Of a stretch of DNA of 63,798 nucleotides, positions 7,900 through 58,084 are shown piece after piece. The translations under genes were made by a program, and so were the position numbers. Each line of letters opens with the position of its first letter. Within the stretch, counting starts at the first letter, position 1. The notes under the pieces are model-generated. The model did not search any database. It was given only the letters and a program-made list of their open reading frames with translations, and was not told where the DNA came from. The DNA is from Bacteroidota bacterium (GTDB lineage Bacteria > Bacteroidota > Bacteroidia > 2-12-FULL-35-15), in NCBI GenBank assembly GCA_040388455.1, contig JAZKBX010000100.1, positions 1 to 63,798 on the forward strand. The letters run 5' to 3'.

Positions 7900-7913
7900 T
7901 TGATTGTAATCAT
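7900..7913 (-). promoter_or_regulatory. FNR/CRP-type box TTGAT-TGTA-ATCAT upstream of the Hsp20-BON genes
   Basis: 14-bp palindrome. Its centre is 58.5 nt from the G of a TTTG -7-like element (7848) on the minus strand. Confidence 0.5.
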
Positions 7914-8060
7914 CATTAACATTTGAAAAAATGTTGATTTTGCTGTTTGTTTTTTTGCCTGGTTTTGATAGGAGTGTACTGTTGAAGTTGTTGAGAATGT
8001 TGAGTTTAAAGTCGAATAAGTTAATTCTTCTTTTCTGATAATACCGCTTTGTGTTTTTTT

Positions 8061-8074
8061 TTGATGTAAATCAC
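8061..8074 (+). promoter_or_regulatory. FNR/CRP-type box TTGAT-GTAA-ATCAC upstream of the Met-rich protein gene
   Basis: Core TGAT-N4-ATCA. Its centre is 58.5 nt from the G of a perfect TAcaTTTG (8119-8126). Confidence 0.5.
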
Positions 8075-8162
8075 TGTTCCGCTTGATGGTTATTATTTCT
8101 TTTTAATTGTGGCTATTTTACATTTGTCGAAAAAAAAATTGTAAATCTAAAAATTCAACCAA

Positions 8163-8621
8163 ATGATACTAGTCGCCTCATCTCTTTCATTACTTACAAT
8201 AGTTGCCGGAATGTTTTTATACGCAAAAACTATTAAGGAGGGACTTAATCAGTTCTTTAAAATTGTTTCTCTTTTTATTATCATAGTCGGCTTTTTAAAT
8301 TTATTTGCGGGCAGTGCTTTTTTCATGATGAAGAAAATTTATATGGTTGGTGCTTATTATCACAATATGGGAGACCGTGGTTATGGACATCATGGAAATA
8401 AAATGAAAAAGCAAAAGTATATGCACATGAAGTATGATAACATGTGTGATGGGAATTATGAATGTAGAAGGAAAGCAATGTGCTGTAGTGAAATGAAGAT
8501 GATGGAAAACGATGATTGTTGCCCTTCAGGAATGGGGATGAATAGGATGATGAAGGATAAATCCTATTGTATGCCAGGTAAAATGATGATCAAAAAAGAT
8601 TCGGTCATTATGAAAAAATAA
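8163..8621 (+). CDS. Membrane-anchored Met/Cys/His-rich protein (putative Cu(I)-binding)
   Basis: Two N-terminal TM helices. By my count the last ~95 residues hold 18 Met, 7 Cys and 4 His (MCC, DDCC, GMGM, HH, MHM). Confidence 0.6.
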   Translation: MILVASSLSLLTIVAGMFLYAKTIKEGLNQFFKIVSLFIIIVGFLNLFAGSAFFMMKKIYMVGAYYHNMGDRGYGHHGNKMKKQKYMHMKYDNMCDGNYECRRKAMCCSEMKMMENDDCCPSGMGMNRMMKDKSYCMPGKMMIKKDSVIMKK

Positions 8622-8688
8622 TTGGAATTGAAATCTGTTTTCAGCTCCATTGTAAAAACAAATTAATTATATTTCTTATACTATAAAA

Positions 8689-9531
8689 ATGAAAAATTAT
8701 AAAATTTTATTACTGTCTCTTCCACTGTTGGTATTGTTTTCATGTGTAACAAAAAAGAAATATTATTCGCTTGATACTGAATATAAAAAAGTTCAGGCCA
8801 ATAATAGTAATTGTAATGATCAGCTAAAAAATGCTCAGGCATTAAACACTGATCTGACGAATCAAAAAATGTTGCTTACGGCACAGGTAGACTATTTGAA
8901 AAAGAATAGTACAGAGGTATTAAGTGCGTTACAGGATATGTCGGTATTGTCGTCAAAGCAAGCAGAAAGTGTAAAACAATCGTTGGAAAATATCTCTCAA
9001 AAGGATTCCTATATACGGGATCTTCAATCAGCTATTTCAAGAAAAGATTCTCTTAACATGCGATTGGTGATGAATTTGAAAAGCAATTTAAGTGATGTAA
9101 ATGATAAGGATATCAATATCAAAGTGGAGAAAGGTGTTGTCTATATTGATATTTCGGACAAAATGTTATTCAATACCGGTAAATTTGCTGTAACAGAAAA
9201 GGCAAAAGTAATATTGGGTAAAGTGGCCACGGTGTTGAATTCCTATCCCGAAATTGAGTTTTTAGTGGAAGGGCATACTGATTCAGTTCCTATTCAAAAT
9301 GCTTGTATGATGGACAATTGGGACCTGAGTGTAAAAAGGGCTACTTCTGTAGTTAGGATCCTTCAGAAAGAATATAACATGAATCCCTCCAGAATGACAG
9401 CTTCGGGACATAGTGAGTATGTGCCTGTTGCTTCTAACGATACCGAGGAAGGCAGAGCACTTAACCGCAGAACAAGAATTATTATTTTGCCGCAGTTGGA
9501 TCAGTTTTTTAAATTGTTATCTACTAAATAA
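8689..9531 (+). CDS. OmpA/MotB-family lipoprotein with a coiled-coil N-terminal region
   Basis: Lipobox LFSC; C-terminal OmpA_C pattern ..GHTD..P.....N..LS..RA..V......NRRT.I. Confidence 0.85.
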   Translation: MKNYKILLLSLPLLVLFSCVTKKKYYSLDTEYKKVQANNSNCNDQLKNAQALNTDLTNQKMLLTAQVDYLKKNSTEVLSALQDMSVLSSKQAESVKQSLENISQKDSYIRDLQSAISRKDSLNMRLVMNLKSNLSDVNDKDINIKVEKGVVYIDISDKMLFNTGKFAVTEKAKVILGKVATVLNSYPEIEFLVEGHTDSVPIQNACMMDNWDLSVKRATSVVRILQKEYNMNPSRMTASGHSEYVPVASNDTEEGRALNRRTRIIILPQLDQFFKLLSTK

Positions 9532-9600
9532 AAAGGATAAGAAGTAATTAGAATCAAATTTTATATTGTTCCAGATCATTTGATTTCCTTCATTTCCTTA

Positions 9601-9824
9601 GTAATTTTGTTATATCTTAATTGAGATTGTGTCCGATCAAATAGGTAATAGAAATAAGCATTTTAAAAGGTGCAAAACTAAAATCCGAACAACAGTATAA
9701 AAACTGTTTTTGATCAAGGAGTTGTTTTAATCAAGAAAAAGATTGGATAGAATAAACGTTTTAAAAGACCCTAAACTATCCTGAAACTTGACAGAGGTGA
9801 TGAATAATCGCCTCTGTTTTTTTT
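9601..9824 (+). ncRNA. Candidate ~210-225 nt small RNA, copy A (promoter- and terminator-bounded, no conserved ORF)
   Basis: TAatTTTG -7 element at 9602-9609. Ends in a 10-bp hairpin (9791-9817) followed by T8. Homologous throughout to 60027-60249. Confidence 0.55.
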
Positions 9825-9892
9825 GCAAAATTTTGCGGATCTTCAAAATGCAGGTTTTGTTGATGCGGGTTTTAGTTTTAATCTAAAGAATT

Positions 9893-10031
9893 CCCGAGGC
9901 TCTGCTTCGGGGGGCACGTTATCGTTTTCTTTTTTGCCACAGATTCCACAGATTAATTTGTGACAATTTGTGAAATCTGTGACAGCTTTATTATTCAAGT
10001 AACCCGATACCTCGAGGCTTTGTTTCGGGGG
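9893..10031. repeat. Composite REP/MITE-like intergenic element
   Basis: Two CGAGGCTYTGYTTCGGGG hairpin words (9893-9914, 10010-10031) flank CCACAGATTCCACAGATT and its inverted AATCTGTG partner (9937-9983). Confidence 0.6.
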
Positions 10032-10112
10032 TATTCATTTTAGAGAAATCCTCTGATTCCCTTTCCTTCACCACTCCGAAGCAATACCAATTTCAAAAAA
10101 AATATGAAAAAG

Positions 10113-10126
10113 ATGATTTTAATCAT
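10113..10126 (+). promoter_or_regulatory. FNR/CRP-type box ATGAT-TTTA-ATCAT upstream of the U32 operon
   Basis: Perfect palindrome half-sites 48 nt upstream of ATG 10174; weak -7 (cATTG, G at 10155, 35.5 nt). Confidence 0.55.
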
Positions 10127-10173
10127 TTTAATCCCGAATTATAAAGGCAACATTGCATAGTTAAAAACAAAAT

Positions 10174-11412
10174 ATGAATCAGGTAAAGTTGTTATCTCCG
10201 GCAGGATCATTTGAATCTTTAAGAGCGGCCATTCAGGGCGGAGCTGACGCAGTGTATTTCGGGATCGAGCAATTAAATATGCGATCCCGATCCAGTAATA
10301 ATTTCACAATAAACGACTTAAGTGAAATATATAAAATATGTTCGCAAAAAGAAGTCAAAACATACCTCACGATCAATACAATTATTTATGATCATGATGT
10401 TTCTTTAATGAAAAAGATTATTGAAGCAGCAAAAGAAAACAAAATTGATGCTATCATTGCTTGTGATCAGGCAGTTTTAAATTATGCAAAAAAAATTAGA
10501 ATGCCGGTTCATATTTCCACTCAGGCCAATGTAAGCAATATTGAAAGTGTTGAATTTTTCTCCTTATTTGCTGATACCATTGTGCTGGCCAGGGAGCTGA
10601 GTTTACGTCAGGTTGGCGATGTAGTAAAACAGATAAAACGCTCGGCCATAAAAGGCCCATCAGGAGAGTTGATAAAGATTGAAGTGTTTGTTCATGGCGC
10701 TTTATGCATGGCTGTTTCAGGGAAATGTTATTTGAGTTTACATACCCACAATGCATCTGCAAACAGAGGGGCCTGCATTCAAAATTGCAGGAGAAGTTAC
10801 ATTGTTAAGGATAAAGAAGAAGAAGAAATAGAATTTGAGATCGATAATGAATACATCATGTCATCTAAAGATCTGTGCACTATTGATTTTATGGATAAAA
10901 TAATTGAATCGGGTATTCATATTCTGAAAATAGAGGGGAGGGGCCGCTCCGCTGACTATGTATACACTGCCACTAAATGTTATCGTGAGGCGATAAATGC
11001 GTATTATGAAAAAACATATACTAAAGACAAGGTGGATGAGTGGAAAGTAAGACTCTCAACTGTTTTTAACAGAGGATTTTGGGATGGCTATTATTTAGGA
11101 AAAAAAATGGGGGAATGGTCCGATGAATATGGTTCAAAAGCAACAAAAAAGAAAATATATATTGGTAAAGGACTTAAATATTTTAGTGAAAAAAATGTGG
11201 CTGAGTTTAAACTTGAATCCAACCAATTGTCAGTGGGAAGCACTATTATGGTGATCGGACCCACTACTGGAATAATTCAGGGTAAAGTCACAGAGCTTCG
11301 TGTTCAGGACTCCTCAGTTGATTCAGTGAGCAAGGGAGATATTTTTTCTTTTCCATTGAATGAAAAAATTCGTCCATCCGACAAGTTGTATAAAGTAATA
11401 GATGCGGAATGA
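10174..11412 (+). CDS. Peptidase U32 family protein (PrtC/TrhP/UbiU-like, probable Fe-S O2-independent hydroxylase type)
   Basis: LLSPAGS..L.AAI.GGADAVY start; four-Cys cluster HGALCMAVSGKCYLS...GACIQNC. Confidence 0.85.
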   Translation: MNQVKLLSPAGSFESLRAAIQGGADAVYFGIEQLNMRSRSSNNFTINDLSEIYKICSQKEVKTYLTINTIIYDHDVSLMKKIIEAAKENKIDAIIACDQAVLNYAKKIRMPVHISTQANVSNIESVEFFSLFADTIVLARELSLRQVGDVVKQIKRSAIKGPSGELIKIEVFVHGALCMAVSGKCYLSLHTHNASANRGACIQNCRRSYIVKDKEEEEIEFEIDNEYIMSSKDLCTIDFMDKIIESGIHILKIEGRGRSADYVYTATKCYREAINAYYEKTYTKDKVDEWKVRLSTVFNRGFWDGYYLGKKMGEWSDEYGSKATKKKIYIGKGLKYFSEKNVAEFKLESNQLSVGSTIMVIGPTTGIIQGKVTELRVQDSSVDSVSKGDIFSFPLNEKIRPSDKLYKVIDAE

Positions 11413-11639: not shown

Positions 11640-11643
11640 GAAA

Positions 11644-12184: not shown

Positions 12185-12198
12185 ATGATCTACATCAT
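12185..12198 (+). promoter_or_regulatory. FNR/CRP-type box ATGAT-CTAC-ATCAT (autoregulatory position, FNR paralogue 1)
   Basis: Centre is 36.5 nt from the G of TTTG at 12228. This places the TSS after the track's ATG at 12207. Confidence 0.65.
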
Positions 12199-12248
12199 AT
12201 TTTATTATGATTAATAGATACATTTTTGTGTATCTAAACGTTCTATCC

Positions 12249-12971
12249 ATGTTAATTCCAACAAATAAACAAAAAGAAGTTCCGTCATGTGATAAATGTG
12301 ACTCTGCCAATAATTCTATATTTTGTGTTTTAAATAAAATAGAATTGGCTGATCTCTCAGATACTAAATCCCATATTTTTTATAAAAAGGGTCAAACGGT
12401 TTTTTATGAAGGTAACCACCCTCATGGATTGTATTGTATATATTCAGGAAAAGTAAAAATTCATAAATTAGGACACGATGGCAAGGATCAAATTTTACGT
12501 CTGGCCAAAAAGGCCAATGTTATAGGTTATCGCGCGCTGTTGAGTGATGATTATTATCATGCTTCCGCAACTGCACTGGAGGATTCGGTGATCTGTTTCT
12601 TTCCCAAAAAAGATTACCAAAATCTAATTGTTTCTAACCCACTACTTTCAATGCAGATCCTAAAACTGCTTTCTGCAGATTTAAAATCAGCCGAACAAAA
12701 AGCGATGAATATGGTGCAAAAGCAAGTCAAGGAACGCATTGCTGAAACATTACTTATGTTAAAAGAGTTTTTTGGATTAGAATCTGATAACGCAACCATT
12801 AACACTGTTCTTACGCGGGAAAGTATTGGAAATATTGCAGGTACAACAACTGAAACAGCAATAAGAACATTATCTGATCTGTGTAAGAATAAGACCATAG
12901 ATCTGATAGGAAAAAAAATAAAAATTTTAAATAATACAGAGCTTATAAAAATTGCGAATCTTAGCGACTAA
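12249..12971 (+). CDS. CRP/FNR-family regulator with an FNR-type N-terminal Cys cluster
   Basis: C-x2-C-x8-C (SCDKCDSANNSIFC) plus central Cys; cNMP-binding fold; HTH ..NIAGTTTETAIRTL. Start moved from 12207 to 12249 (promoter geometry, paralogue alignment). Confidence 0.85.
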   Translation: MLIPTNKQKEVPSCDKCDSANNSIFCVLNKIELADLSDTKSHIFYKKGQTVFYEGNHPHGLYCIYSGKVKIHKLGHDGKDQILRLAKKANVIGYRALLSDDYYHASATALEDSVICFFPKKDYQNLIVSNPLLSMQILKLLSADLKSAEQKAMNMVQKQVKERIAETLLMLKEFFGLESDNATINTVLTRESIGNIAGTTTETAIRTLSDLCKNKTIDLIGKKIKILNNTELIKIANLSD

Positions 12972-14115: not shown

Positions 14116-14129
14116 ATGACATATATCAT
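14116..14129 (+). promoter_or_regulatory. FNR/CRP-type box ATGAC-ATAT-ATCAT upstream of the radical SAM gene
   Basis: Centre is 36.5 nt from the G of aaaTTTG (14159). Confidence 0.65.
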
Positions 14130-14272
14130 TTTTTGTTTTGGAAGGTTAGTCGAAATTTGTAATGCGAGGCTATATAGAATTAGCCTTCCTATTGAGCTTC
14201 TTTAGCAGCAAGTATTGTTTTTCTCTTCTTGTTATAATAAACAGTGTTCTCATCATTAAATTATATTTTAAT

Positions 14273-15313
14273 ATGTTTGGTATAGAGTTAAATTCATTTA
14301 AATTCAAAAACTTTGTTGTGCAGCGTATCGGCAAGGATACCTTTGTTAAGCCTGTGATTAAATTTATACAAGGCACCTCGTTTATCCTGGATTATTTGTT
14401 GTTTTATAAATTCAAGCTGATCAGAAATAGAAGTTCCATCACAGAAATCAATATTGAATTTGTTAGTTATTGCAATCTGCGTTGCAAATTGTGTTCACTC
14501 GATCATGAGAAGCCCAAAATAAGAATGAGTGCGGATGTTTTGAAGCGGTTCTTTGAAAATTTTTTAAGTGACAGTCGTTTTCGGAGTGTTAAAACCATTC
14601 ATCTGTATAATGCAGGTGAAGTTTTGCTTCATCCTAAATTAATTGAAATGCTTGATATTATTAAGCAATTTAAATTTGAGGCTCAGAAAAAAAATATTTT
14701 CTTTCCTCAAATTGCCTTATTAACAAATGCAACCATACTGGATGAAAAGAAATCGAAATTGCTAATCGCTTCAACTGTTATTGATAATATCCGTTTTAGT
14801 ATGGATGGGGGAAACAAAGAAAAATTTGAAGAGATGAGAGAGCGTGCTGAGTGGAATCTGTTTATTGAAAACATTAAAACATTCTGCGAATTGAATAAAA
14901 AAAGTGCTAAGCCTATACCAACAGGTATTATCACTTTAGTTGAGTATCACAATAAATTGAACACGAAATGGATGAGCAAGGAATTTCAGGAATTATTAAA
15001 CATGGTTGATGGATATGAGCTTCGTTATGCACATAATTGGGCAGGTGAAGTAGATATTAAAGAACTTAAAAATAAAAACAACACTAGTTACAAGGTAGGA
15101 TGTAGCTTGTTGATGCATCAATTGGTATTATTGCCTAATGGCGATATTACAGTTTGTTGTGCCGATTTAAATTCAAAGGGTGTAATTGGAAATATAACTA
15201 AAGAAGACCTGTTTTCAATTTATAATAAACCTCAACGATTAGAAATGCTGAAGAAATTTATTGATAATAAAAAACATGAAATTGATTTATGTAAAGATTG
15301 TGAAACGTTTTAG
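14273..15313 (+). CDS. Radical SAM enzyme with a Cys-rich SPASM/twitch-like C-terminus
   Basis: CNLRCKLC (CxxxCxxC); C-terminal ..ITVCCADLN.. and DLCKDCETF. The track start 14162 falls at or upstream of the predicted TSS, so M38 (14273) is preferred. Confidence 0.75.
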   Translation: MFGIELNSFKFKNFVVQRIGKDTFVKPVIKFIQGTSFILDYLLFYKFKLIRNRSSITEINIEFVSYCNLRCKLCSLDHEKPKIRMSADVLKRFFENFLSDSRFRSVKTIHLYNAGEVLLHPKLIEMLDIIKQFKFEAQKKNIFFPQIALLTNATILDEKKSKLLIASTVIDNIRFSMDGGNKEKFEEMRERAEWNLFIENIKTFCELNKKSAKPIPTGIITLVEYHNKLNTKWMSKEFQELLNMVDGYELRYAHNWAGEVDIKELKNKNNTSYKVGCSLLMHQLVLLPNGDITVCCADLNSKGVIGNITKEDLFSIYNKPQRLEMLKKFIDNKKHEIDLCKDCETF

Positions 15314-15353: not shown

Positions 15354-15367
15354 ATGATCCATGTCAT
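15354..15367 (+). promoter_or_regulatory. FNR/CRP-type box ATGAT-CCAT-GTCAT upstream of the thioredoxin-fold gene
   Basis: Centre is 36.5 nt from the G of aaTTTTG (15397). The track's TTG start at 15395 lies inside this -7 element. Confidence 0.65.
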
Positions 15368-15412
15368 ATAATTGTTGAACCTTATATTCGAATTTTGAAA
15401 AAAAAAATTGCT

Positions 15413-16140: not shown

Positions 16141-16311
16141 TTAAATACTAACTACAACTGCCGCCAGCATACTAAGCCCGCCAATAAATGATAGGATAAT
16201 TAGGGTAAGCCCAATTTTATAGAATCTTTTACTTTTTAAAATATCACCTTGAATTAGCAAACCCATTGCAATTGAGGCGATCAACCAAAATACTCCGAAA
16301 AGAATAACCAT
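16141..16311 (-). CDS. Small (56 aa) two-TM membrane protein, below the ORF-track size cut-off
   Basis: MVILFGVFWLIASIAMGLLIQGDILKSKRFYKIGLTLIILSFIGGLSMLAAVVVSI*. Has its own palindromic box and -7 element at the canonical 36.5-nt spacing. Confidence 0.5.
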   Translation of the reverse strand: MVILFGVFWLIASIAMGLLIQGDILKSKRFYKIGLTLIILSFIGGLSMLAAVVVSI

Positions 16312-16361
16312 TTTTATTTAAATTTATTTGACAAAAATATTCTTGTTTTTACCAATATTTT

Positions 16362-16375
16362 ATGATGGGTATCAT
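16362..16375 (-). promoter_or_regulatory. FNR/CRP-type box ATGAT-GGGT-ATCAT upstream of the 56-aa ORF
   Basis: Perfect half-sites. Centre is 36.5 nt from the G (16332) of a minus-strand TAtTTTTG. Confidence 0.6.
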
Positions 16376-16473: not shown

Positions 16474-16487
16474 ATGACATACATCAT
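16474..16487 (+). promoter_or_regulatory. FNR/CRP-type box ATGAC-ATAC-ATCAT upstream of the RIC operon
   Basis: Centre is 36.5 nt from the G of cAccTTTG (16517). Confidence 0.65.
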
Positions 16488-16571
16488 ATAATTACTTGAT
16501 ATATTCCTTCACCTTTGTATTTGAATTTGTATGTCATTATTCATTCTTTTTAATTAATCTAAATAAACTAT

Positions 16572-17525: not shown

Positions 17526-17692
17526 AATTCTGGCAAATTTATTTTGCCGGTTACCATTATAGAACGCAGATGACGCAGGTTGTTTTTTGATCAAATATGA
17601 TTTATCTACATCATAATAATTGTCAGCGTTATCAGCGTTCTACTTTGTTTTTTCACCTATTGGATCTTATGGTATTATTAATCATTTAGGCA

Positions 17693-20328: not shown

Positions 20329-20342
20329 CTGACAAATATCAT
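20329..20342 (+). promoter_or_regulatory. FNR/CRP-type box CTGAC-AAAT-ATCAT upstream of the fasciclin gene
   Basis: Centre is 36.5 nt from the G of ttcTTTG (20372); ~180 nt before ATG 20523. Confidence 0.5.
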
Positions 20343-28544: not shown

Positions 28545-28558
28545 ATGATAAATGTCAT
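28545..28558 (-). promoter_or_regulatory. FNR/CRP-type box ATGAT-AAAT-GTCAT upstream of the nos operon
   Basis: Centre is 36.5 nt from the G (28515) of a minus-strand TTATTTTG; 63 nt upstream of the start at 28482. Confidence 0.7.
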
Positions 28559-28868: not shown

Positions 28869-28882
28869 ACGACATAGATCAG
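28869..28882 (+). promoter_or_regulatory. Degenerate FNR/CRP-type box ACGAC-ATAG-ATCAG
   Basis: 33.5 nt from the G of a perfect TAacTTTG (28902-28909); upstream of ATG 28923. Confidence 0.45.
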
Positions 28883-32250: not shown

Positions 32251-32281
32251 CTATGATACAGAACAGTGTTCTGTATCATAG
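32251..32281. repeat. 31-nt perfect palindrome CTATGATACAGAACA-G-TGTTCTGTATCATAG
   Basis: Read directly. Its ends carry ATGAT/ATCAT half-sites at N16 spacing. Lies downstream of the CRP-family gene and upstream of the acyltransferase gene. Confidence 0.8.
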
Positions 32282-37618: not shown

Positions 37619-37632
37619 ATGACAATTATCAT
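37619..37632 (-). promoter_or_regulatory. FNR/CRP-type box ATGAC-AATT-ATCAT upstream of the TauE-mobA-moaD-moeB-moaE-moaCB operon
   Basis: Centre is 36.5 nt from the G (37589) of a minus-strand cAtaTTTG. Confidence 0.6.
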
Positions 37633-46877: not shown

Positions 46878-46891
46878 ATGATGTATATCAT
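46878..46891 (-). promoter_or_regulatory. FNR/CRP-type box ATGAT-GTAT-ATCAT upstream of the cyt c/molybdoenzyme operon
   Basis: Perfect half-sites, 113 nt upstream of the start at 46765; 56.5 nt from the G of a minus-strand TTTG (46828). Confidence 0.6.
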
Positions 46892-48396: not shown

Positions 48397-48410
48397 ATGA
48401 TATGTGTCAT
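48397..48410 (-). promoter_or_regulatory. FNR/CRP-type box ATGAT-ATGT-GTCAT upstream of the porin gene
   Basis: 105 nt upstream of the start at 48292; no clear TTTG at the canonical spacing. Confidence 0.5.
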
Positions 48411-48477: not shown

Positions 48478-48491
48478 ATGAGATATATCAT
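48478..48491 (+). promoter_or_regulatory. FNR/CRP-type box ATGAG-ATAT-ATCAT (FNR paralogue 2 promoter)
   Basis: Centre is 36.5 nt from the G of TtacTTTG (48521). Confidence 0.6.
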
Positions 48492-48544
48492 CTTTTGTAG
48501 AAGAGATTCTTTTTTACTTTGCAGTATATTTTAAAGATTTGGAA

Positions 48545-49418: not shown

Positions 49419-49432
49419 ATGACTCGTATCAT
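49419..49432 (+). promoter_or_regulatory. FNR/CRP-type box ATGAC-TCGT-ATCAT upstream of the regulator-norCB-like operon
   Basis: 35.5 nt from the G of a perfect TAtcTTTG (49454-49461). Confidence 0.65.
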
Positions 49433-49487
49433 ATTTTAAAAATTTTCCTGCTAATATCTTTGTTGTGTTAATATTAATAATTTGAAA

Positions 49488-50225
49488 ATGAATATTGCCA
49501 AGAATATTATTGCTTTTTCAGAGAATTCTGTAAGTTGTGAAAATTGCTGGCTCAACAATTTTTCAGCTAATGTAAATTGCTCAACCGAATTCCTGGATAA
49601 AATCCTTTTGAACAAAGAGGAGAAAAATTATAACAAAGGGGCATACTTAATTAAGAGTGGCGTTCTTGTGTCAGGCGTTTATTGTATTCAAAAAGGTACT
49701 GTTAAAGTTTTTAAAAAGGGGATTAAAAATAAGGATTTTATACTATGGGTTGCGCGTAAAGGCGATGTTATTGGCTTGAATTCTTTTATTAATGATGAAG
49801 TATATTCTTTTTCTGCATCTGCATTAGACGAAACTTCTGCCTGTTTTATTCCATCTTCTGACTTGAAAATTCTTCTTAGCAAAAAGCCTGTTGCTTTTGT
49901 TAAATTAATGGGAAATGTTTGTGATAAATTGAATTTTGTGGAACAACGTATTACCAGTATCTCAAAAAAAACTATAAAAGAACAATTTGCAGAAATACTA
50001 ATTACTCTATCCCGGAGCAATTCCGAAAGTGATAAAAATTTAGTTATTAATTATTCAGTTAAGGACCTGGCAAGCTTTGTTGGGACTACTAAAAATTATC
50101 TTTATAAAATCCTGGTGGAGTTTACTGATCGGAAAATCCTCTCCGTTAATAACCGAAAGTTTGCGATAAGTAATATGAATGCTCTTTCATTGATTGCCGC
50201 AGGGGAAAATAAATTACCTAAATAA
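49488..50225 (+). CDS. CRP/FNR-family regulator, Cys cluster C-x2-C-x10-C, divergent recognition helix
   Basis: SCENCWLNNFSANVNC; cNMP fold; HTH FVGTTKNYLYKILVEF lacks the E--IR of the other three. Confidence 0.8.
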   Translation: MNIAKNIIAFSENSVSCENCWLNNFSANVNCSTEFLDKILLNKEEKNYNKGAYLIKSGVLVSGVYCIQKGTVKVFKKGIKNKDFILWVARKGDVIGLNSFINDEVYSFSASALDETSACFIPSSDLKILLSKKPVAFVKLMGNVCDKLNFVEQRITSISKKTIKEQFAEILITLSRSNSESDKNLVINYSVKDLASFVGTTKNYLYKILVEFTDRKILSVNNRKFAISNMNALSLIAAGENKLPK

Positions 50226-50236: not shown

Positions 50237-50662
50237 ATGTCCACAAAATTAAAGCGTTTTGTTTTCTGGGGTTTATTTTTCTTGTTTATATTATATGGTT
50301 TTTTCATCTATACTTCGGGTACTGAAAATGATGGGGGAAAAAGATTCTTAACAGAAGAAGCAAAACGTGGCAAATTATTATTTCAGGAATACAATTGTAC
50401 TTCTTGTCATCAGTTGTATGGACTGGGAGGTTATATGGGGCCTGATCTTACTAATGTTATTTCAGATCCGGGAAAAGGAGAATCATACGTAAAAAGTTTT
50501 ATTAAAAATGGGACGCAGCAGATGCCCAATTTTCATCTCAGCGAAATGGATGTGAATGCGCTTACAGAATATCTTAATTATGTTGATAAAACAGGCATTT
50601 CTCCGGTAAGGGATTTTGAAGTACGGTATGACGGAACAATTATGCAAAAAGCTATTCAATGA
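50237..50662 (+). CDS. NorC-like membrane-anchored monohaem cytochrome c
   Basis: N-terminal TM; RGKLLFQEYNCTSCHQLYG.GGY.GPDL; MPNFHLSE, collinear with cNOR NorC as recalled. Confidence 0.8.
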   Translation: MSTKLKRFVFWGLFFLFILYGFFIYTSGTENDGGKRFLTEEAKRGKLLFQEYNCTSCHQLYGLGGYMGPDLTNVISDPGKGESYVKSFIKNGTQQMPNFHLSEMDVNALTEYLNYVDKTGISPVRDFEVRYDGTIMQKAIQ

Positions 50663-51987
50663 AAAAGGAGGTTGGGGTATTTTTTATTTTTCTATCTATC
50701 GTGGCTTTATTGGCCGGGATGTTTTTTGGTAGTTTAAGTGCTTTCCAATTTGTTTTCCCTGGTTTTTTCGATCTGTTACCTTTTTTTAAAAATAGGCCTC
50801 TTCATGTTTCATTGGTGGTTTCATGGATATTTCTGAGTGCAATTGGTGGGATCTATTATTATATTCCTAAGTATTGTAATCTACCGTTATTCTCTAGAAA
50901 GATGGCGGTAATACATATATGGCTATTCATTGTTACAGGATTACTTATTTTAATATGTTATTTATTTGGGAAATTTGGGGGGCGCGAATATTGGGAATTT
51001 CCTGCTATTTTAGCCATTCCTGTTTTTATGTCATGGGTTTTATTTGCATTTAATTATTTTAAAACTGTATTTAAAAAAATCGGTCAATGGCCTGTATACT
51101 TGTGGATGTGGGCAACGGGGATATGTTTTTTTTTATTCACTTTCACTGAATCGTATTTATGGGTATTCCCTTATTTTAGAGATAATCTTATCCGAGACCT
51201 AACTGTTCAATGGAAAGCTTATGGTGCATTAACAGGGTCCTGGAATATGCTGGTATACGGTACCGCTATTTTTGTAATGGAGCGAATAAAGGGAGATGAA
51301 ACAGTTGCTAAATCTAAATTGGCATTTTGGATGTATTTTTTAGGACTTACCAACTTGCTGTTCGGATGGGCTCATCACATTTATATTGTACCTACCGTGC
51401 CTTGGATAAGATACCTTGCTTATGCCATCAGCATGACCGAATTGTTGATACTTTCTAAAATTATTTGGAACTGGAAAAGCTCGCTTGAACAAGCCAAAAA
51501 GGATTATTATTTTTTGCCTTTTCGTTTTCTTGTCGCATCCGATGTATGGATATTTTTAAATTTGATACTTGCTATTTTAATTTCTATTCCTGCTGTTAAT
51601 GTTTATACTCATGGTACCCATATTACTGTTGCACATGCTATGGGTAGCGCCATTGGTATCAATACTATGATCTTGTTATCATCCGTATTATTTATTATTA
51701 ATGATGTTACAAAATTTAATTTCCCTAAAATTCAAAAAAATATTATTCGTGCAGGATTTTGGATCACAAATATTTCCCTTCTTGCTTTTTTGATCTTCCT
51801 GACCATTGCCGGAGCTGAAAAAGGGATTTTAGTGATTGAAAATAAACTTTCATTCCAGGCAATTATGCAAGAGATATCCCCTTATCTGATATCTTTTGCC
51901 TGGTCAGGTTTGGGAATTTTTATTGGTTTGATAATGACAACTCTTCCTCCATTGATTGCTATGTTTAAATACTTAAAGAAGAAATAA
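50659..51987 (+). CDS. NorB/CcoN-like haem-copper-oxidase superfamily subunit I with non-canonical active-site residues
   Basis: 12 TM. H49 (helix II), HH239-240 (helix VII) and H326 (helix X) are present. Helix VI has no His or Glu, and H-x-H is replaced by H-A-M. Confidence 0.8.
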   Translation: MKKEVGVFFIFLSIVALLAGMFFGSLSAFQFVFPGFFDLLPFFKNRPLHVSLVVSWIFLSAIGGIYYYIPKYCNLPLFSRKMAVIHIWLFIVTGLLILICYLFGKFGGREYWEFPAILAIPVFMSWVLFAFNYFKTVFKKIGQWPVYLWMWATGICFFLFTFTESYLWVFPYFRDNLIRDLTVQWKAYGALTGSWNMLVYGTAIFVMERIKGDETVAKSKLAFWMYFLGLTNLLFGWAHHIYIVPTVPWIRYLAYAISMTELLILSKIIWNWKSSLEQAKKDYYFLPFRFLVASDVWIFLNLILAILISIPAVNVYTHGTHITVAHAMGSAIGINTMILLSSVLFIINDVTKFNFPKIQKNIIRAGFWITNISLLAFLIFLTIAGAEKGILVIENKLSFQAIMQEISPYLISFAWSGLGIFIGLIMTTLPPLIAMFKYLKKK

Positions 51988-53659: not shown

Positions 53660-53673
53660 ATGAGCCTGGTCAT
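53660..53673 (+). promoter_or_regulatory. FNR/CRP-type box ATGAG-CCTG-GTCAT (distal site, nrdJ promoter region)
   Basis: Centre-to-centre distance to the next box is 22 bp. Confidence 0.45.
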
Positions 53674-53681
53674 TATAAAAT

Positions 53682-53695
53682 ATGATGTACATCAT
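53682..53695 (+). promoter_or_regulatory. FNR/CRP-type box ATGAT-GTAC-ATCAT (proximal site, nrdJ promoter region)
   Basis: Perfect palindrome about 150 nt upstream of ATG 53843. Confidence 0.55.
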
Positions 53696-53842
53696 AAAAT
53701 TTTATGATGAAAGACAACATGTTTAAAAGTCGAATCAAATGTTAAGAAATAGAAAATATAAAGCTGAATTAACAATCCTAAATTGCAGTCGAATTATTTT
53801 TCAGGAATATAAAAAAATAAAAATCTTTAAAATATATAACAG

Positions 53843-56413
53843 ATGTTAACTTTAGAATTTCCTAAAAGGTCCGTAGAAAGAGACGAGCAGACGTTTTCTT
53901 ATAACGAAGTGTTTGAAAAATGCATTTCATATTTTCATGGTGATGAGCTTGCAGCCTCCACCTGGATGAATAAATATGCTATGAAAAATTTGGACAAAAA
54001 ATTTCTTGAACTTACTCCAAATGATATGCATTTGCGTATGGCAAAAGAATTTGCACGAATTGAATTAGATTACAAAACAAAATCCCACCTTAATGGTAGT
54101 TTCAAATTACTTTCAAAGTACGGACAAGAAAGAGAATTGCTTGATGAGAAAAAAATCTTTAATTATTTCAAAGATTTTAAATACATCATACCTCAGGGCA
54201 GCGTAATGTCATCATTAGGGAATCCTCACATTATTGCATCACTTTCCAATTGTATTGTACTGCCCGAGATATATGATTCTTATGGAGGAATATCCTATAC
54301 AGATCAACAGTTGGCGCAACTATTCAAAAGGAGATGTGGGGTTGGAATCGATATTTCCACATTAAGACCTTCCGGTATGTCTGTTTCCAATGCTGCAGGA
54401 ACTACAACGGGAGCAGTTTCTTTCATGGAGCGATTCTCCAATACAACACGCGAAGTTGCTCAAAATGGTAGGAGAGGAGCCCTTATGATAACGATAGATA
54501 TTGCACATCCCGATGTTGAGCAATTCATTACTGTTAAACAGGATCTTTCAAAAATTACCGGTGCAAATATTTCTATTCGTCTTTCTGATGAGTTTATGAA
54601 TGCAGTTGCGAAGGATACTGATTATACATTACGTTGGCCAATTGATTCTACTGAACCTAAATTTTCAAAAGTTGTTAAAGCTCAGGAATTATGGAATACT
54701 ATTGTTAAATGTGCACATACCAGTGCAGAACCGGGGTTAATATTTTGGGACAGGCAGCATTATTATTCCACATCTTCGGTATACCCCGGATTTAAAAATG
54801 TTTCCACTAACCCTTGTTCTGAAATTGCTATGCAGGGAGGTGATAGTTGCAGGCTCATTGCTCTTAATTTATTTAATTTTATCGACAAACCTTTTACTGC
54901 TGAAGCTAAATTTAAGTACAAAGAATTTCATGAAGTTACCTATGAAGCGCAACGTTTGATGGATGACCTCGTTGATCTTGAACTGCAGGCTATTGAAAAG
55001 ATATTAGCGAAAATCGAAAGCGACCCTGAACCTGATTATATCAAAGAAGTGGAAGTAAGTACATGGAAACTTCTTTACAATGCCGGTAAAAAGGGACGAA
55101 GAACAGGTTTAGGCTTTACTGCTCTTGGTGATATGCTTGCCGGTTTGGGTTTACAATTCGACTCTAAAGAGGCTATTGAAGAAGTAGAAAAAATAATGAG
55201 AACAAAATGTGAAGCTGAATTTGATAGTTCAATTGATATGTCACTTGAACGTGGGAAATTCGCTGATTTTGATCCTGAAATAGAAAACACATCAGAGTTC
55301 GTTCAGATGTTGGAAAAAGAATTGCCGCAAGTATATTCCCGCATGATGAACCTTGGCAGAAGAAATATTTCCATTAGCACTGTTGCCCCAACAGGTACCC
55401 TTAGCATGTTGGCACAAACATCTTCAGGATTGGAGCCCGTATTTATGCTGTCATACAAACGCAGAAGGAAAGTGAATTTAAATGATAAAAACCAACGCGT
55501 TGATTTTGTTGACCCAATGGGAGATTCATGGCAGGAATTTATTGTATATCACCATAAATTAAAGCAATGGATGGAAATAACAGGTGAAACTGATATTTCA
55601 AAAAGTCCTTACCATGGTTCAACCGCACCTGAGATCGATTGGGAAAAACGTATTGAATTACAAGCGGTGGTTCAAAAATACACTACTCATTCGCTTAGTT
55701 CCACTATTAATCTTCCAAATGATGTATCCGTAGATAAAGTTGGCCAGATCTATATGGAGGCATGGAAAAGCGGGTTAAAAGGGATCACCGTTTATCGTGA
55801 TGGTTCAAGAACCGGAGTATTGGTTTCTACCGAAACAAAATCAGAATCAAACGATATCAAAGAAACTCAGCCTCCTAAACGACCTAAAACATTAGAAGCT
55901 GAAGTCGTACGTTTTATGAATCATGATGAAAAATGGATCGCTGTAGTAGGTATTCTAAAAGGAAAACCTTACGAAGTTTTTACAGGTCGTGCTGAAGATT
56001 CCTTAAGTATTCCTAAATGGGTTGAAAAAGGTTGGGTAATTAAAAATGTTACTGAAGATTCCCGCAAACGTTACGATTTCCGGTTCATGGACAAAGAAGG
56101 TTACAAAGTTACTATTGAGGGCCTTTCCAGATCATTTAACAAAGAATACTGGAATTATGCGAAATTGATTTCAGGTGTGTTGCGTCATGGAATGCCTTTG
56201 CCGCATGTAGTTGCGCTTATTGGTGACCTTAATCTTTATAACGATAGTATCAATACATGGAAAACAGGGGTGGAACGTGCGCTCAAAAAATACATTCCTG
56301 ATGGAACACAAGCAGTGGATCGTAAATGCACTGAATGTGGAAGTCCTGAAGGATTGATATATGAAGAAGGATGCGTTAAGTGCAAAAATTGTGGAAACTC
56401 CAAATGCGGTTGA
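53843..56413 (+). CDS. nrdJ: Class II (adenosylcobalamin-dependent) ribonucleotide reductase
   Basis: 856 aa; STNPCSEI..C catalytic region; no ATP-cone and no adjacent beta subunit; Cys-rich C-terminal tail CTECG..CVKCKNCGNSKCG. Confidence 0.8.
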   Translation: MLTLEFPKRSVERDEQTFSYNEVFEKCISYFHGDELAASTWMNKYAMKNLDKKFLELTPNDMHLRMAKEFARIELDYKTKSHLNGSFKLLSKYGQERELLDEKKIFNYFKDFKYIIPQGSVMSSLGNPHIIASLSNCIVLPEIYDSYGGISYTDQQLAQLFKRRCGVGIDISTLRPSGMSVSNAAGTTTGAVSFMERFSNTTREVAQNGRRGALMITIDIAHPDVEQFITVKQDLSKITGANISIRLSDEFMNAVAKDTDYTLRWPIDSTEPKFSKVVKAQELWNTIVKCAHTSAEPGLIFWDRQHYYSTSSVYPGFKNVSTNPCSEIAMQGGDSCRLIALNLFNFIDKPFTAEAKFKYKEFHEVTYEAQRLMDDLVDLELQAIEKILAKIESDPEPDYIKEVEVSTWKLLYNAGKKGRRTGLGFTALGDMLAGLGLQFDSKEAIEEVEKIMRTKCEAEFDSSIDMSLERGKFADFDPEIENTSEFVQMLEKELPQVYSRMMNLGRRNISISTVAPTGTLSMLAQTSSGLEPVFMLSYKRRRKVNLNDKNQRVDFVDPMGDSWQEFIVYHHKLKQWMEITGETDISKSPYHGSTAPEIDWEKRIELQAVVQKYTTHSLSSTINLPNDVSVDKVGQIYMEAWKSGLKGITVYRDGSRTGVLVSTETKSESNDIKETQPPKRPKTLEAEVVRFMNHDEKWIAVVGILKGKPYEVFTGRAEDSLSIPKWVEKGWVIKNVTEDSRKRYDFRFMDKEGYKVTIEGLSRSFNKEYWNYAKLISGVLRHGMPLPHVVALIGDLNLYNDSINTWKTGVERALKKYIPDGTQAVDRKCTECGSPEGLIYEEGCVKCKNCGNSKCG

Positions 56414-56461
56414 TAGCAGGTTAATAGAGCCATTTCTTTTTTTGCGAATTGCAATTTAAAA

Positions 56462-56518
56462 GCGCCATAAGAACAACAGATTAAATTTTTTTTCTGTTAT
56501 TCTTGTGGCGTTTTTTTT
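56462..56518 (+). terminator. Rho-independent terminator after nrdJ
   Basis: Long imperfect hairpin GCGCCATAAGAACAACAGA..TCTGTTATTCTTGTGGCG followed by T8. Confidence 0.65.
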
Positions 56519-56597
56519 ATTATAAGGTTTTTTAGAATATTTTTCTATGTTTTGAATCATATTTTCTCTGTTAGATTTATAATACTTTTAAGATTGT

Positions 56598-58046
56598 ATG
56601 AAAAAAAACAGTATATTTTTAATTGTGGCAATGCTTCTCTCCTTTTCTTGCGCAAAGGATAGGGGTAATCCCGATTATGAAGGGTACCCGAAGAATGTCG
56701 GTGAGATCATTGTTAACAAATGCAGTATGAGTGGTTGCCACAATTCGGTTAGTTCGGATGCTTGTGCCGGTCTCGATTTGTCTTCATGGGAAGCTATGTT
56801 TAAAGGAAGCAGAAATAATTCTTCTGTTATACCTTATCGCTCCGATCATAGTTTTTTATTGTTTTCAGTTAATACATTTAGTGACTTAGGACCGCAGATG
56901 AATCCAGGTATGCCTTTAAACAAAACACTATTGAGCAGAAATGAAGTAACTGTCATAAAAGATTGGATAAACCGGGGAGCTCCAAACAACCAGGGGGGAA
57001 TTAAATTTTCAGATAATAATAAACGAAAAATTTATGTCGCTAACCAGGGCTGTGATTTTGTTTCTGTGTTTGATGGCGAAACAAAATTGATCTCCCGTGC
57101 ATTCGATGTTGGGAATAGTGCAAATACTGAAGCTCCTCATGATATGATGGTTTCGCCCGATGGCCAATATATTTACGTATCCTTTTATGCAAGTAATTTA
57201 TTTCAGAAATTCAGAACCAGTGATCATGTAAAAGTGGGAGAATTAATTTTGCCTGATATCAGCTGGCATACGATCGATATATCGGGCGATTCAAAAATTG
57301 CTGTCACCACACATCTTGATGCAAATGGAAAAATGGCAATTATTGATCTGGTGAATATGAGTATTATAGTAACTTATCAGGGAGGAGGTTTGTTTATCTA
57401 CCCTCATGGTTGCGCATTAAATTATGATGGAAGTATGGTTTATACTACTTCGCAACAGGGGAATTTTATTTATAAAGTAAATTTAGCAGATCCTCAAAGT
57501 CCCGATATAAGCCAGGTAGCTTTACAAACAGGCGATGCTCCCACTCCAAATGGAATATATAAACCGTATGATGTAGATTATTTTCCGGACTATTCGAAGT
57601 ATGCCGTTACTTGCCAAGGAACAAACGAATTGCGGATATTTAACGTATCAAATGATAGTTTGTTAAGTATCATCTCCACCACTGGCGTTCCACAGCTAAT
57701 GGCTTTCTCAAAGCAAGTGCCTTATTTATTTGTAAGCTGCATGGGTGATTCCGCTAATTCACAGGCAACAAGCAGTGTGGATGTAATAAATTACAATACT
57801 TTCCAAAAGATCAAAAGTATATTCACAGGACATGAACCCAGAGGAATTAGCGTTGATGAAGAAGGCCGTTGTGTATGGGTTGCCAACCGAAATATTTCCC
57901 CTACCGGCTGGGCTCCTCATCATACAACCGTTTGCCAGGGGAGAAGTGGAAATGTTACTATAATTGATATGAATACATTACAATTAATCCCAGATTGGAA
58001 AACAGAAGTTTCTGTGGATCCTTATTGCATTTCTATTAAAAAATAA
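56598..58046 (+). CDS. Lipoprotein: PSCyt-like N-terminal domain with a C-x4-CH motif plus a YVTN-type beta-propeller
   Basis: Lipobox LSFSC; KCSMSGCH; about 7 repeats of the ..P...V.SPDG..(I/V)YV.. type. Confidence 0.65.
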   Translation: MKKNSIFLIVAMLLSFSCAKDRGNPDYEGYPKNVGEIIVNKCSMSGCHNSVSSDACAGLDLSSWEAMFKGSRNNSSVIPYRSDHSFLLFSVNTFSDLGPQMNPGMPLNKTLLSRNEVTVIKDWINRGAPNNQGGIKFSDNNKRKIYVANQGCDFVSVFDGETKLISRAFDVGNSANTEAPHDMMVSPDGQYIYVSFYASNLFQKFRTSDHVKVGELILPDISWHTIDISGDSKIAVTTHLDANGKMAIIDLVNMSIIVTYQGGGLFIYPHGCALNYDGSMVYTTSQQGNFIYKVNLADPQSPDISQVALQTGDAPTPNGIYKPYDVDYFPDYSKYAVTCQGTNELRIFNVSNDSLLSIISTTGVPQLMAFSKQVPYLFVSCMGDSANSQATSSVDVINYNTFQKIKSIFTGHEPRGISVDEEGRCVWVANRNISPTGWAPHHTTVCQGRSGNVTIIDMNTLQLIPDWKTEVSVDPYCISIKK

Positions 58047-58070
58047 ACGACAGACACCGAAACGGGAACT

Positions 58071-58084
58071 ATGATTTCCATCAT
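58071..58084 (+). promoter_or_regulatory. FNR/CRP-type box ATGAT-TTCC-ATCAT upstream of the 604-aa unknown gene
   Basis: Perfect half-sites; 35.5 nt from the G of a perfect TAccTTTG (58106-58113). Confidence 0.65.

Follow-up and report, generated by a model that had tools for sequence, protein, structure and literature searches.

A dyad-symmetric box at a fixed distance from the -7 promoter element recurs in a Bacteroidota denitrification locus as a likely Crp/Fnr-type operator

The DNA analyzed here, referred to as the window, comprises the 63,798 nucleotides of contig JAZKBX010000100.1 (assembly GCA_040388455.1, Bacteroidota bacterium), and the element under study is a 14-bp palindrome, ATGAY-N4-RTCAT, that recurs in its intergenic regions and is referred to as the box. 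The window has a G+C content of 34.6%, and Pfam and NCBIfam searches showed that it encodes a denitrification island of the Bacteroidota type. The island includes a clade II nos cluster in the order cyt c-nosZ-nosB/L-nosD-nosF-nosY (28482 down to 21893, minus strand), an operon (46765 down to 40060, minus strand) whose periplasmic Nar-like molybdoenzyme has EB_dh and NarJ-like subunits, molybdenum cofactor genes (33210-39877), and norC-norB (50237-51987). Four genes encode Crp/Fnr regulators, named here fnrA (12249-12971), crp32424 (32424-33146), fnrB (48539-49264), and fnrC (49482-50225). Further genes encode a ScdA/hemerythrin repair protein, an 856-amino-acid (aa) ribonucleotide reductase, U32, radical SAM/SPASM, Thioredoxin_9, and fasciclin proteins, and several proteins without any family assignment. 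The closest NosZ in a collection of species-representative genomes was 94% identical and came from a metagenome-assembled genome (MAG) of an uncultured Bacteroidota; other near relatives were Chitinophagaceae/Ferruginibacter-like. The DNA runs containing the window sequence were groundwater and watershed metagenomes, and among RNA runs none contained it.

For comparison, 80 loci totaling 1.36 Mb were collected around NosZ relatives with 76 to 94% identity, drawn from Chitinophagales, Flavobacterium, Saprospiraceae, Sphingobacteriales, and others. A second, independent set consisted of 8 further fnr loci in differing contexts. Among the related sequences, L001 is approximately 85% identical to the window, and L081 and L082 are metagenome contigs with 86 to 92% identity.

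The exact pattern ATGAYNNNNRTCAT (ATGAY-N4-RTCAT) occurred 14 times in the window, against 0.40 expected from shuffled sequences with a shuffle maximum of 2, and the core TGAYN4RTCA occurred 21 times against 5.0 expected. Thirteen of the 14 exact copies were intergenic, although intergenic DNA makes up only 17.8% of the window (P = 2e-9). Among all gapped palindromes, counted without bias over the intergenic sequence of the window, ATGA-N6-TCAT was the sole enriched one, with 15 intergenic copies and 1 coding copy; this count gave no second enriched palindrome and thus no candidate site for FnrC, a regulator with a divergent recognition helix. The element is directly visible as a dyad of 14 to 16 bp with the extended consensus T-ATGAY-T-N2-A-RTCAT-A and the TGA-N6-TCA core of the family. 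It shares this core and its 14-bp dyad symmetry with the FNR box, whose half-site is TTGAT, but carries A instead of T as the outer base.

The coordinates listed for the boxes in the original prediction, which was made from this DNA alone, were all correct when checked against the sequence. Those at 7900, 8061, 20329, 28869, 48478, and 53660 differ from the exact pattern by 1 or 2 mismatches each and that at 17601 by 2. The accompanying claim that every box is intergenic stood for 13 of the 14 exact copies; the remaining one, not listed at the time, lies at 12547..12560 inside the fnrA coding sequence, where it encodes D-D-Y-Y-H. In L091, one of the further fnr loci, a box occupies the same position and frame of fnr and encodes D-D-C-Y-H. 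The conserved D-D-x-Y-H codons provide the simpler explanation for this copy, which is probably a by-product of these residues combined with AT-rich codons rather than a regulatory site.

The distance from the box center to the G of a downstream TTTG was exactly 36.5 nt at 10 boxes: 12185, 14116, 15354, 16362 (minus), 16474, 20329, 28545 (minus), 37619 (minus), 48478, and 49419. With a TTTG background of 0.0105 per intergenic position and strand, one offset common to 10 of 40 box sides has a probability of 1e-11, or 7e-10 after correction for 70 offsets. This spacing had been proposed for nine of the promoters and was found to be exact for all nine. Three others had been placed at 35.5 nt; this holds for 58071 and 10113, the latter with ATTG in place of TTTG, but 49419 belongs to the 36.5-nt group. 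Offsets of 58.5 nt at 7900 (minus) and 8061 (plus) and of 56.5 nt at 46878 (minus) were likewise reproduced. The reading of such sites as class I FNR promoters was not upheld: at 58.5 nt it was rejected in favor of tandem boxes, in which a strong distal copy is followed, 22 bp further downstream, by a degenerate proximal copy centered at 36.5. This tandem pattern was seen at 8061/8083 and 7900/7878 of the window and in 12 related loci, and the ribonucleotide reductase promoter has three boxes in 22-bp phase. Canonical geometry was lacking at four more of the listed boxes, namely, 28869 (a half-site only, offset 33.5), 17601 (39.5), 48397, and 53660.

The same pattern was found in the 80 nosZ loci. 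They contained 144 ATGAY-N4-RTCAT sites and only 10 sites of the E. coli type TTGAY-N4-RTCAA, bearing out the predicted A-for-T exchange at the outer base. Across their 1.36 Mb, the intergenic DNA (191 kb) contained 111 boxes and the open reading frames (ORFs; 1,170 kb) contained 33, a 20-fold difference in density, and TATGA-N6-TCATA was by far the commonest gapped palindrome of their intergenic DNA (82 versus 15 coding). In a histogram of TTTG offsets the main peak was 36.5 (62 cases), flanked by 35.5 (7 cases) and 37.5 (13 cases), and 58.5 formed a second peak (16 cases). Selection by TGA-N6-TCA alone returned 126 cases of TTTG at 36.5, compared with 7 to 28 at control offsets; of these 126 sites, 88 have A as the outer base at one end and 103 at the other, compared with 12 and 6, respectively, for T. 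When sites were oriented solely by the direction of the neighboring gene, TTTG reappeared at +33.5 to +36.5 (46 to 65 of 73 sites) and T at +29.5 (47 of 73), and the aligned dyad extended to T-ATGAYT-N2-ARTCAT-A. The spacer between box and -7 element was not conserved.

A box with at most one mismatch preceded 67 of 73 cyt c-nos operons (92%), 46 of 58 regulator genes, 29 of 43 fasciclin genes, 26 of 34 genes for the membrane protein hyp407, and 14 of 23 ScdA-like genes, compared with about 0% for internal nos genes and 11% for other genes. Box and spacing were conserved across Chitinophagales, Flavobacteriales, Saprospirales, and Sphingobacteriales, and Crp/Fnr genes accompanied the box in almost every locus. 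Cultivable relatives with the box include Flavobacterium cucumis DSM 18830 (L066), Solitalea lacus (L083), and Flavihumibacter spp. In the 8 further fnr loci, boxes stood before fnr itself, nirK (Solitalea lacus), fnrC-norCB, cyt c-narGHJI, and the ribonucleotide reductase gene, and also before genes for radical SAM, hyp604 and hyp407 homologues, nuoA, and a beta-eliminating lyase.

The genome-wide map of transcription start sites in Flavobacterium psychrophilum assigns the sigma-A consensus TAnnTTTG to positions -12 to -5 (PMC9723704). With its G at -5, the box center would lie at -41.5, where FNR and CRP bind at class II promoters. This figure derives from the fixed 36.5 nt to the -7 G and from the Flavobacterium map, and the two together support the class II-like architecture that had been proposed. 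The downstream element matches the sigma-A -7 motif, but the -33 TTTG expected about 19 nt upstream of it was not seen; at +7.5, beside the box, the base was A in 62 of the 73 gene-oriented sites. The place of the -33 element is taken by the box and its A-rich flank, which fits activator dependence. The alternative that the TTTG is itself a -33 element was ruled out, as start codons mostly follow only ~15 to 35 nt downstream. The TA of the -7 element was present at 3 of 11 perfect or near-perfect boxes and at 5 of 6 promoters with degenerate boxes. The -7 elements without TA beside perfect boxes include CATTTTTG, GAAATTTG, and CACCTTTG, and degenerate boxes pair with perfect TAnnTTTG, as would be expected of activator-dependent and partly constitutive promoters, respectively.

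The individual promoters are described here from left to right. The HSP20 gene (7350-7805, minus) has a tandem pair composed of the distal box TTGATTGTAATCAT (7900..7913, minus), centered 58.5 nt from the G, and a proximal half-site (7878-7891) centered at 36.5, with the -7 element TAATTTTG at 7848-7855 (minus); TGATTGTAATCAT is invariant in L081 and L082 and the flanks vary. On the plus strand, tandem boxes TTGATGTAAATCAC (8061-8074) and TTGATGGTTATTAT (8083-8096), 22 bp apart, precede the -7 element TACATTTG (8119-8126) and the gene for a 152-aa Met-rich membrane protein (8163-8621); the box cores at 7900 and 8061 and the -7 elements form conserved blocks in L081 and L082. The exact box ATGATTTTAATCAT (10113..10126, plus) lies upstream of the U32-family gene (10174-11412), with a weak -7-like element CAACATTG at 10148-10155 and the 35.5-nt offset.

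The exact box upstream of fnrA (12185..12198, plus) is followed by the -7 element CATTTTTG (12221-12228), and boxes before fnrA homologues recur in L083, L084, L086, L088, L089, L090, and L091. The exact box at 14116..14129 (plus) precedes the radical SAM/SPASM gene (14162-15313), with GAAATTTG at 14152-14159. L091 likewise has a radical SAM gene next to its fnr homologue, with a box at 36.5; BLASTP gave no match of its product to the window proteins, and the gene is thus not a demonstrated orthologue. The exact box at 15354..15367 (plus), with GAATTTTG at 15390-15397, precedes the Thioredoxin_9 gene. The longest ORFs begin too far upstream at 12207, 14162, and 15395; box-promoter geometry and the L001 alignment favor starts at 12249, about 14270, and 15413, so the boxes at these three genes are truly upstream. 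An exact box at 16362..16375 (minus), with TATTTTTG at 16332-16339 (minus), serves a 56-aa membrane ORF (16141-16311, minus), and another at 16474..16487 (plus), with CACCTTTG at 16510-16517, stands upstream of the DUF2249-ScdA_N-hemerythrin gene (16572-17525). The degenerate box TTTATCTACATCAT (17601..17614, plus), upstream of a DUF1858/DUF2249 gene, is non-canonical, its nearest TTTG lying at 39.5; the box is identical in L001, where the downstream TTTG is not kept.

The box CTGACAAATATCAT (20329..20342, plus), with GTTCTTTG at 20365-20372, lies upstream of the fasciclin gene (20523-21083), whose predicted 5' untranslated region of ~146 nt (20377-20522) contains a 63-nt insertion relative to L001. 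The nos operon is preceded by an exact box at 28545..28558 (minus), with TTATTTTG at 28515-28522 (minus). L001 retains the boxes at 16362, 16474, 20329, and 28545 together with the -7 element of each, with drift in N4 and flanks. Upstream of hyp407 (28923-30146), the remnant or half-site ACGACATAGATCAG (28869..28882, plus) has the -7 element TAACTTTG at offset 33.5, and L001 retains only its right half; in other loci, most hyp407 orthologues have a full box at 36.5 (22 to 26 of 34). A weak candidate with 2 mismatches, not listed earlier, lies at 32253..32266 (minus) with CAATTTTG at 36.5, before an acyltransferase gene (31249-32103, minus). The exact box between moeA and tauE-mobA (37619..37632, minus) has CATATTTG at 37589-37596 (minus).

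Upstream of the operon encoding cyt c and the NarG-like protein (periplasmic Nar/EB_dh type), the exact box at 46878..46891 (minus) has its nearest TTTG at 56.5 and is non-canonical; in L089, a cyt c-narGHJI operon has an exact box 86 nt upstream. For the exact box between porin437 and fnrB (48397..48410), neither side has a TTTG at the canonical offset. The fnrB gene is preceded by the box ATGAGATATATCAT (48478..48491, plus) with TTACTTTG at 48514-48521, and fnrC-norC-norB by an exact box (49419..49432, plus) with TATCTTTG at 49455-49462 and offset 36.5; L090 has a box and fnrC-norC-norB in the same arrangement. The 856-aa ribonucleotide reductase gene (53843-56413, plus; Pfam Ribonuc_red_lgC) lies downstream of the phased boxes at 53660, 53682 (exact), and 53704 (half-site), which together span 53660..53717 (plus), with CATGTTTA at 36.5 from 53682; boxes lie 134 to 163 nt upstream of this gene in L090 and L091, as in the window. 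The exact box at 58071..58084 (plus), with TACCTTTG at 58106-58113 and offset 35.5, precedes the gene for the 604-aa protein hyp604 (58173-59987), which follows the ribonucleotide reductase gene in L091 as well. A second weak candidate with 2 mismatches, also new, lies at 61043..61056 (plus) with TACATTTG at 36.5, before the gene for a 101-aa secreted protein (61127-61432).

All four Crp/Fnr paralogues matched both PF00027 and PF13545, giving a cNMP-binding-like domain and a C-terminal Crp-type helix-turn-helix, and the top NCBIfam match was the Fnr subfamily, below its cut-off. FnrA, FnrB, and FnrC, all encoded on the plus strand, each contain C-X2-C-X8..10-C at the N terminus (C-X2-C-X8-C in FnrA) and a central Cys, corresponding to the three N-terminal and one central Cys ligands of FNR with a spacing of X8-10 rather than X5; Crp32424, encoded on the minus strand, has none. 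The best PDB matches of FnrB were a Porphyromonas Crp/Fnr protein (2gau) and Aliivibrio FNR. Its cysteines align to C20, C23, (C29), and C122 of FNR, with HC-x2-C at C20/C23 and MIC-SFP at the C122 motif (the Cys of MVC-EIP in Aliivibrio FNR), and FnrA and FnrC have a Cys in the same alignment column as its central Cys. A 92% identical orthologue of Crp32424 is present in L001.

The recognition helix reads ETAIR in FnrA, ETCIR in FnrB, and ESVIR in Crp32424, so that E--IR replaces the E--SR of FNR in three of the four regulators, as had been predicted; FnrC has the divergent helix KNYLYK (N--YK), without E or R. The E--IR form was found in 54 of 57 readable Crp/Fnr helices of the 80 nosZ loci and in 114 of the 120 best FnrA homologues (55 to 98% identity), 108 of which also have C-X2-C-X8-C. 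The conserved E and R correspond to E181 and R185 of CRP, the residues that recognize the TGA core (PMC1274295). The exchanged residue is the counterpart of Ser212 of FNR, and Ile in place of this Ser co-occurs with the outer A for T. In the literature on specificity swaps between FNR and CRP, Ser212 reads the outer T. Most Crp/Fnr helices of the nos loci belong to a Cys-less regulator of ~198 aa encoded between hyp407 and the cyt c-nos operon (L003-L080, typically at ~8.6 to 9.2 kb of the locus), the gene of which is preceded by tandem boxes of its own with 22-bp spacing. This nos-adjacent regulator is missing from the window and from its closest relative, L001, in both of which the hyp407 box (28869) is reduced to a half-site. 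Crp32424 and the ~198-aa regulators share features of the DNR/NnrR type, whose members lack the FNR Cys motif, use the box of the FNR paralogue, and are linked to nir/nor/nos: they are Cys-less, have the E--IR helix, and lie within or beside nos clusters. The FnrC subfamily is conserved in L086 (10824-11516), L090 (10825-11559), and L091 (1912-2484) with the helix GTTK-x-Y-L/I-Y/N-K, which lacks the TGA-reading E and R, and fnrC is directly upstream of norCB in the window and in L090. FnrC probably does not bind this box and presumably binds something else.

The data obtained here support the view that the box is very probably a site for Crp/Fnr-family activators in a class II-type position, because its enrichment and spacing are far beyond chance and are conserved in the 80 nosZ and 8 fnr loci. 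In the proposed mechanism, dimeric Crp/Fnr activators with the E--IR helix would bind T-ATGAY-N4-RTCAT-A at the predicted -41.5 position and from there contact RNA polymerase, replacing the poor upstream element of promoters that lack a -33 motif, and at some promoters a second dimer would bind at -63.5 through tandem boxes 22 bp apart. Judging from their cysteines, FnrA and FnrB would dimerize and bind when a [4Fe-4S] cluster is intact, that is, without O2. By analogy with ANR and DNR of Pseudomonas, the Cys-less E--IR paralogues (Crp32424 and the ~198-aa regulators) might use the same box for another signal, such as NO or N2O, and Crp32424 is a candidate N-oxide-responsive partner. The fnrC gene would be transcribed from its box promoter together with norCB.

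The predicted regulon comprises the regulatory genes fnrA, fnrB, and fnrC-norCB; the respiratory cyt c-nosZ..Y and cyt c-Nar-like operons; tauE-mobA, the ScdA-like repair protein, and the 856-aa ribonucleotide reductase; the U32, radical SAM, Thioredoxin_9, and HSP20 proteins; and, among proteins without a clear role, fasciclin, the 56-aa ORF, hyp604, and the Met-rich protein. The earlier proposal that the box ties uncharacterized genes to denitrification gained support from conservation for fasciclin (29 of 43), for hyp604 (all 3 homologues seen: 2 of 2 in nos loci, and L091), and for radical SAM (1 of 2); for Thioredoxin_9 and the Met-rich protein the box was seen in close relatives only. 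Conservation also backs hyp407 (26 of 34) and the ribonucleotide reductase (2 of 2). The hyp407 product, a polytopic membrane protein, contains repeats of an H-x-(F/L)-x-x-GW-like motif, and its gene adjoins nos in 59 of 80 loci; neither hyp407 nor hyp604 gave a match in Pfam, NCBIfam, or PDB sequence searches. Elsewhere, boxes with canonical geometry precede genes for a tryptophanase-like beta-eliminating lyase (L004, L008, L012, L086, L089, and L091) and quinolinate synthase NadA (L050) and the nuo operon (L088), indicating that the regulon reaches beyond N-oxide respiration.

It is possible, if doubtful, that the box is mainly an NO/N2O response element of a denitrification/N-oxide regulon, read by Cys-less E--IR regulators of the DNR/NnrR/Nss type, with the O2-sensing FNR paralogues acting only at the top of the cascade. 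Most nos loci do carry the ~198-aa Cys-less E--IR regulator with its own tandem boxes, a Cys-less E--IR paralogue is also encoded in the window (32424-33146), and the gene for ScdA/RIC-type repair of NO damage is a conserved target. Pseudomonas ANR and DNR, moreover, share one box. On the other hand, FnrA and FnrB, with their FNR-like cysteines, have the same helix and their own genes are preceded by boxes, which would suggest autoregulation; the nos-adjacent regulator is not in the window; and boxes before nuo, NadA, the POR/hemerythrin neighborhood, ribonucleotide reductase, U32, and HSP20 serve none of the N-oxide functions. This explanation is compatible with an activator site for Crp/Fnr proteins in general and does not exclude it. 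A Cys-less E--IR paralogue could make part of the regulon N-oxide responsive. That the boxes are repressor operators, for example for aerobic silencing, appears improbable. A protein bound to the box, which overlaps the -33 region, could also occlude RNA polymerase, and FNR is a repressor at some promoters; but the strict phasing of the -41.5 type is a signature of activation, the -33 TTG is absent, and the -7 elements beside perfect boxes tend to lack TA (TA in 3 of 11, against 5 of 6 for degenerate boxes). Hardly credible is an origin of the box without any Crp/Fnr protein, as the upstream element of an ECF-type sigma factor promoter, a dispersed repeat, or a chance feature. Its position matches the -35 region and Bacteroidota are rich in ECF sigma factors, but perfect dyad symmetry around a variable N4, a downstream element that is the sigma-A TTTG motif, the co-occurrence of Crp/Fnr genes in almost every locus, and the enrichment far above shuffles speak against such an origin, and the non-conserved spacer means that the sites are not copies of one repeat.

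Several observations weigh against the Crp/Fnr activator site as the full explanation. The exact boxes at 46878, 48397, and 53682 (TTTA, not TTTG) are without canonical geometry, and in the related loci just 23 of 73 cyt c-nos promoters combined a box with TTTG at 36.5 +/-1. Enrichment was established over the 64-kb window and about 1.5 Mb of related loci. The label "anaerobic" derives solely from the FNR-like Cys ligands of three paralogues, whose X8 spacing differs from the X5 of FNR, so that cluster binding is putative. The link between Ile and the outer A is a correlation between phyla, and the boxes cannot be assigned to individual paralogues.

Two non-coding elements of ~215 nt, 92% identical and on the same strand, lie 50.4 kb apart at 9602-9826 and 60029-60250. 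Copy 1 (plus) has a degenerate box, TTGTTCCAGATCAT (9566-9579), and the -7 element TAATTTTG (9602-9609) ahead of a candidate small RNA (sRNA) at ~9614-9826; copy 2 (plus) has the degenerate box ATGTTCAATGTCAT (59992-60005) and TAATTTTG (60028-60035) ahead of a candidate sRNA at ~60040-60250. In both, the -7 element is perfect, its G lies 36.5 nt from the degenerate box, and the element ends in a hairpin and T-run terminator. The fold z score was -3.9, with two compensatory pairs among four sequences. Rfam gave no match, no homologue was found in the 80 nos loci, and a pattern scan of metagenomes returned just two close relatives. The elements are thus a candidate FNR-box-dependent sRNA pair, and both copies probably belong to the regulon. 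A GC-rich inverted repeat, GTGGGCTGTCAC...GTGGGACAGCCCA around GAGCTTGTCGAAGGGTG at ~60350-60440, lies in the ~260-nt spacer between sRNA copy 2 and UDG; the corresponding spacer of L082 is ~83 nt and does not align, and the repeat looks like a small dispersed element.

The contig L082 (86% identity) has the order HSP20-Met-rich-OmpA-sRNA-UDG with a single sRNA copy, and its OmpA-sRNA-UDG arrangement (L082:1-460) represents an "empty site." Its sRNA is a mosaic, the 5' part resembling copy 1 and the terminator copy 2, from which it follows that the ~50-kb segment between the copies (~9830-60030) is an insertion bounded by direct repeats. This segment contains all four Crp/Fnr genes and nearly all denitrification genes; no integrase was seen in the window. 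The arrangement points to gain or loss of the island by recombination at the sRNA gene. The boxes at 7900 and 8061 lie outside the segment and yet are conserved in L082, which suggests that the regulator-box system predates the island. From sRNA copy 1 to the U32 promoter, L081 (1504-1549) is shorter than the window (9858-10063) by ~200 bp, so that the stretch immediately within the left border of the island is variable.

E. coli FNR shares with this system the Crp/Fnr fold, an N-terminal Cys cluster plus central Cys, a 14-bp dyad with the TGA-N6-TCA core, the class II mode with its center at -41.5 (a predicted value here), replacement of the upstream promoter element, autoregulation, and targets in anaerobic respiration, ribonucleotide reduction, and a U32-family gene. 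It differs in the outer base (ATGAT here, TTGAT in E. coli), the helix (E--IR versus E--SR), the Cys spacing (C-X2-C-X8-C versus C-X2-C-X5-C), and the promoter (sigma-A -7 TAnnTTTG versus sigma-70 -10/-35), and the present system has several paralogues and 22-bp tandem sites. In the strict sense the system is not FNR, as it does not have the E--SR helix and the TTGAT half-site and its Cys spacing differs; the proposed mode resembles that of class II FNR. Pseudomonas ANR/DNR and Paracoccus FnrP/NNR/NarR resemble the window in having several Crp/Fnr paralogues in or next to denitrification clusters, an Fe-S O2 sensor combined with a Cys-less type, and one box type before nar, nor, nos, and regulator genes; they differ in phylum, half-site, and helix, and the nos cluster here is of clade II without nosR. 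In Wolinella succinogenes, the Crp/Fnr paralogues NssA, NssB, and NssC control clade II nos, nap, and nrf; their sequences are not close to those of the window regulators, and the likeness lies in the control of a clade II nosZ system by several paralogues. The FNR-activated sRNAs, such as FnrS of E. coli, are short structured transcripts that combine a class II box with an intrinsic terminator, as predicted for the candidate pair. They share no sequence or Rfam similarity with it, and the putative sRNA here is present in two copies flanking a genomic island. Among Bacteroidota, HcpR2 of Bacteroides/Porphyromonas (GTAAC-N4-GTTAC) and regulators of the MalR/BT4338 type are likewise Crp/Fnr-family proteins with motifs that are predicted or known (PMC1274295, PMC8510549), but their motifs, helix residues, and regulons (hcp only, and carbohydrate use, respectively) are different. 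A scan of Flavobacteriales and Saprospiraceae MAGs with the MalR matrix saw no control of denitrification by Crp/Fnr proteins (PMC8510549), because the matrix was the wrong one for this box. Crp/Fnr genes have been noted to adjoin nosZ in Flavobacteria, with little information outside Proteobacteria (PMC6264515). No description of the ATGAT-N4-ATCAT box, or of any FNR box in Bacteroidota, was found in the literature searched; curated regulon databases lay outside this search.

The box is probably a phylum-specific variant of a well-known switch that gates expression of N2O reductase. N2O-consuming Bacteroidota with clade II nosZ are widespread, their regulation of denitrification is essentially undescribed, and the operator with its fixed geometry supplies a position weight matrix for predicting anoxia- or N-oxide-responsive Bacteroidota genes, including nosZ, in genomes and metagenomes. 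It would also show how a class II activator is fitted to the unusual -7/-33 promoter of the phylum. The conserved proteins hyp407, hyp604, fasciclin, and the 56-aa membrane peptide are nominated as candidate parts of the N-oxide respiration apparatus, and the pairing of Ser-to-Ile with T-to-A is a candidate for a simple specificity rule of the Crp/Fnr family. A broader joint reading can be offered only tentatively: a phylum-wide Bacteroidota network of the FNR/DNR type may use its own DNA code (ATGAT with E--IR, at -41.5 from promoters of the sigma-A(Bfr) type) as the main on-switch of clade II N2O reductase in bacteria that are common N2O sinks in the environment, and the same box may drive the duplicated ~215-nt sRNA, whose copies bound a ~50-kb island that a related genome lacks at the corresponding site. 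This island would thus be both wired into the anaerobic regulon of the host and delimited by one of its elements.

Three loci of the nosZ set (L027, L030, and L076) come from MAG records titled Caulobacter, Bifidobacterium, and Roseobacteraceae and are typical Bacteroidota nos loci with the box; their titles look like mis-binning or mis-assignment. The sole curated RNA family in the window was the Rfam Flavo-1 RNA, found at 63411-63491 (minus) with 58.8 bits against a gathering score of 42.

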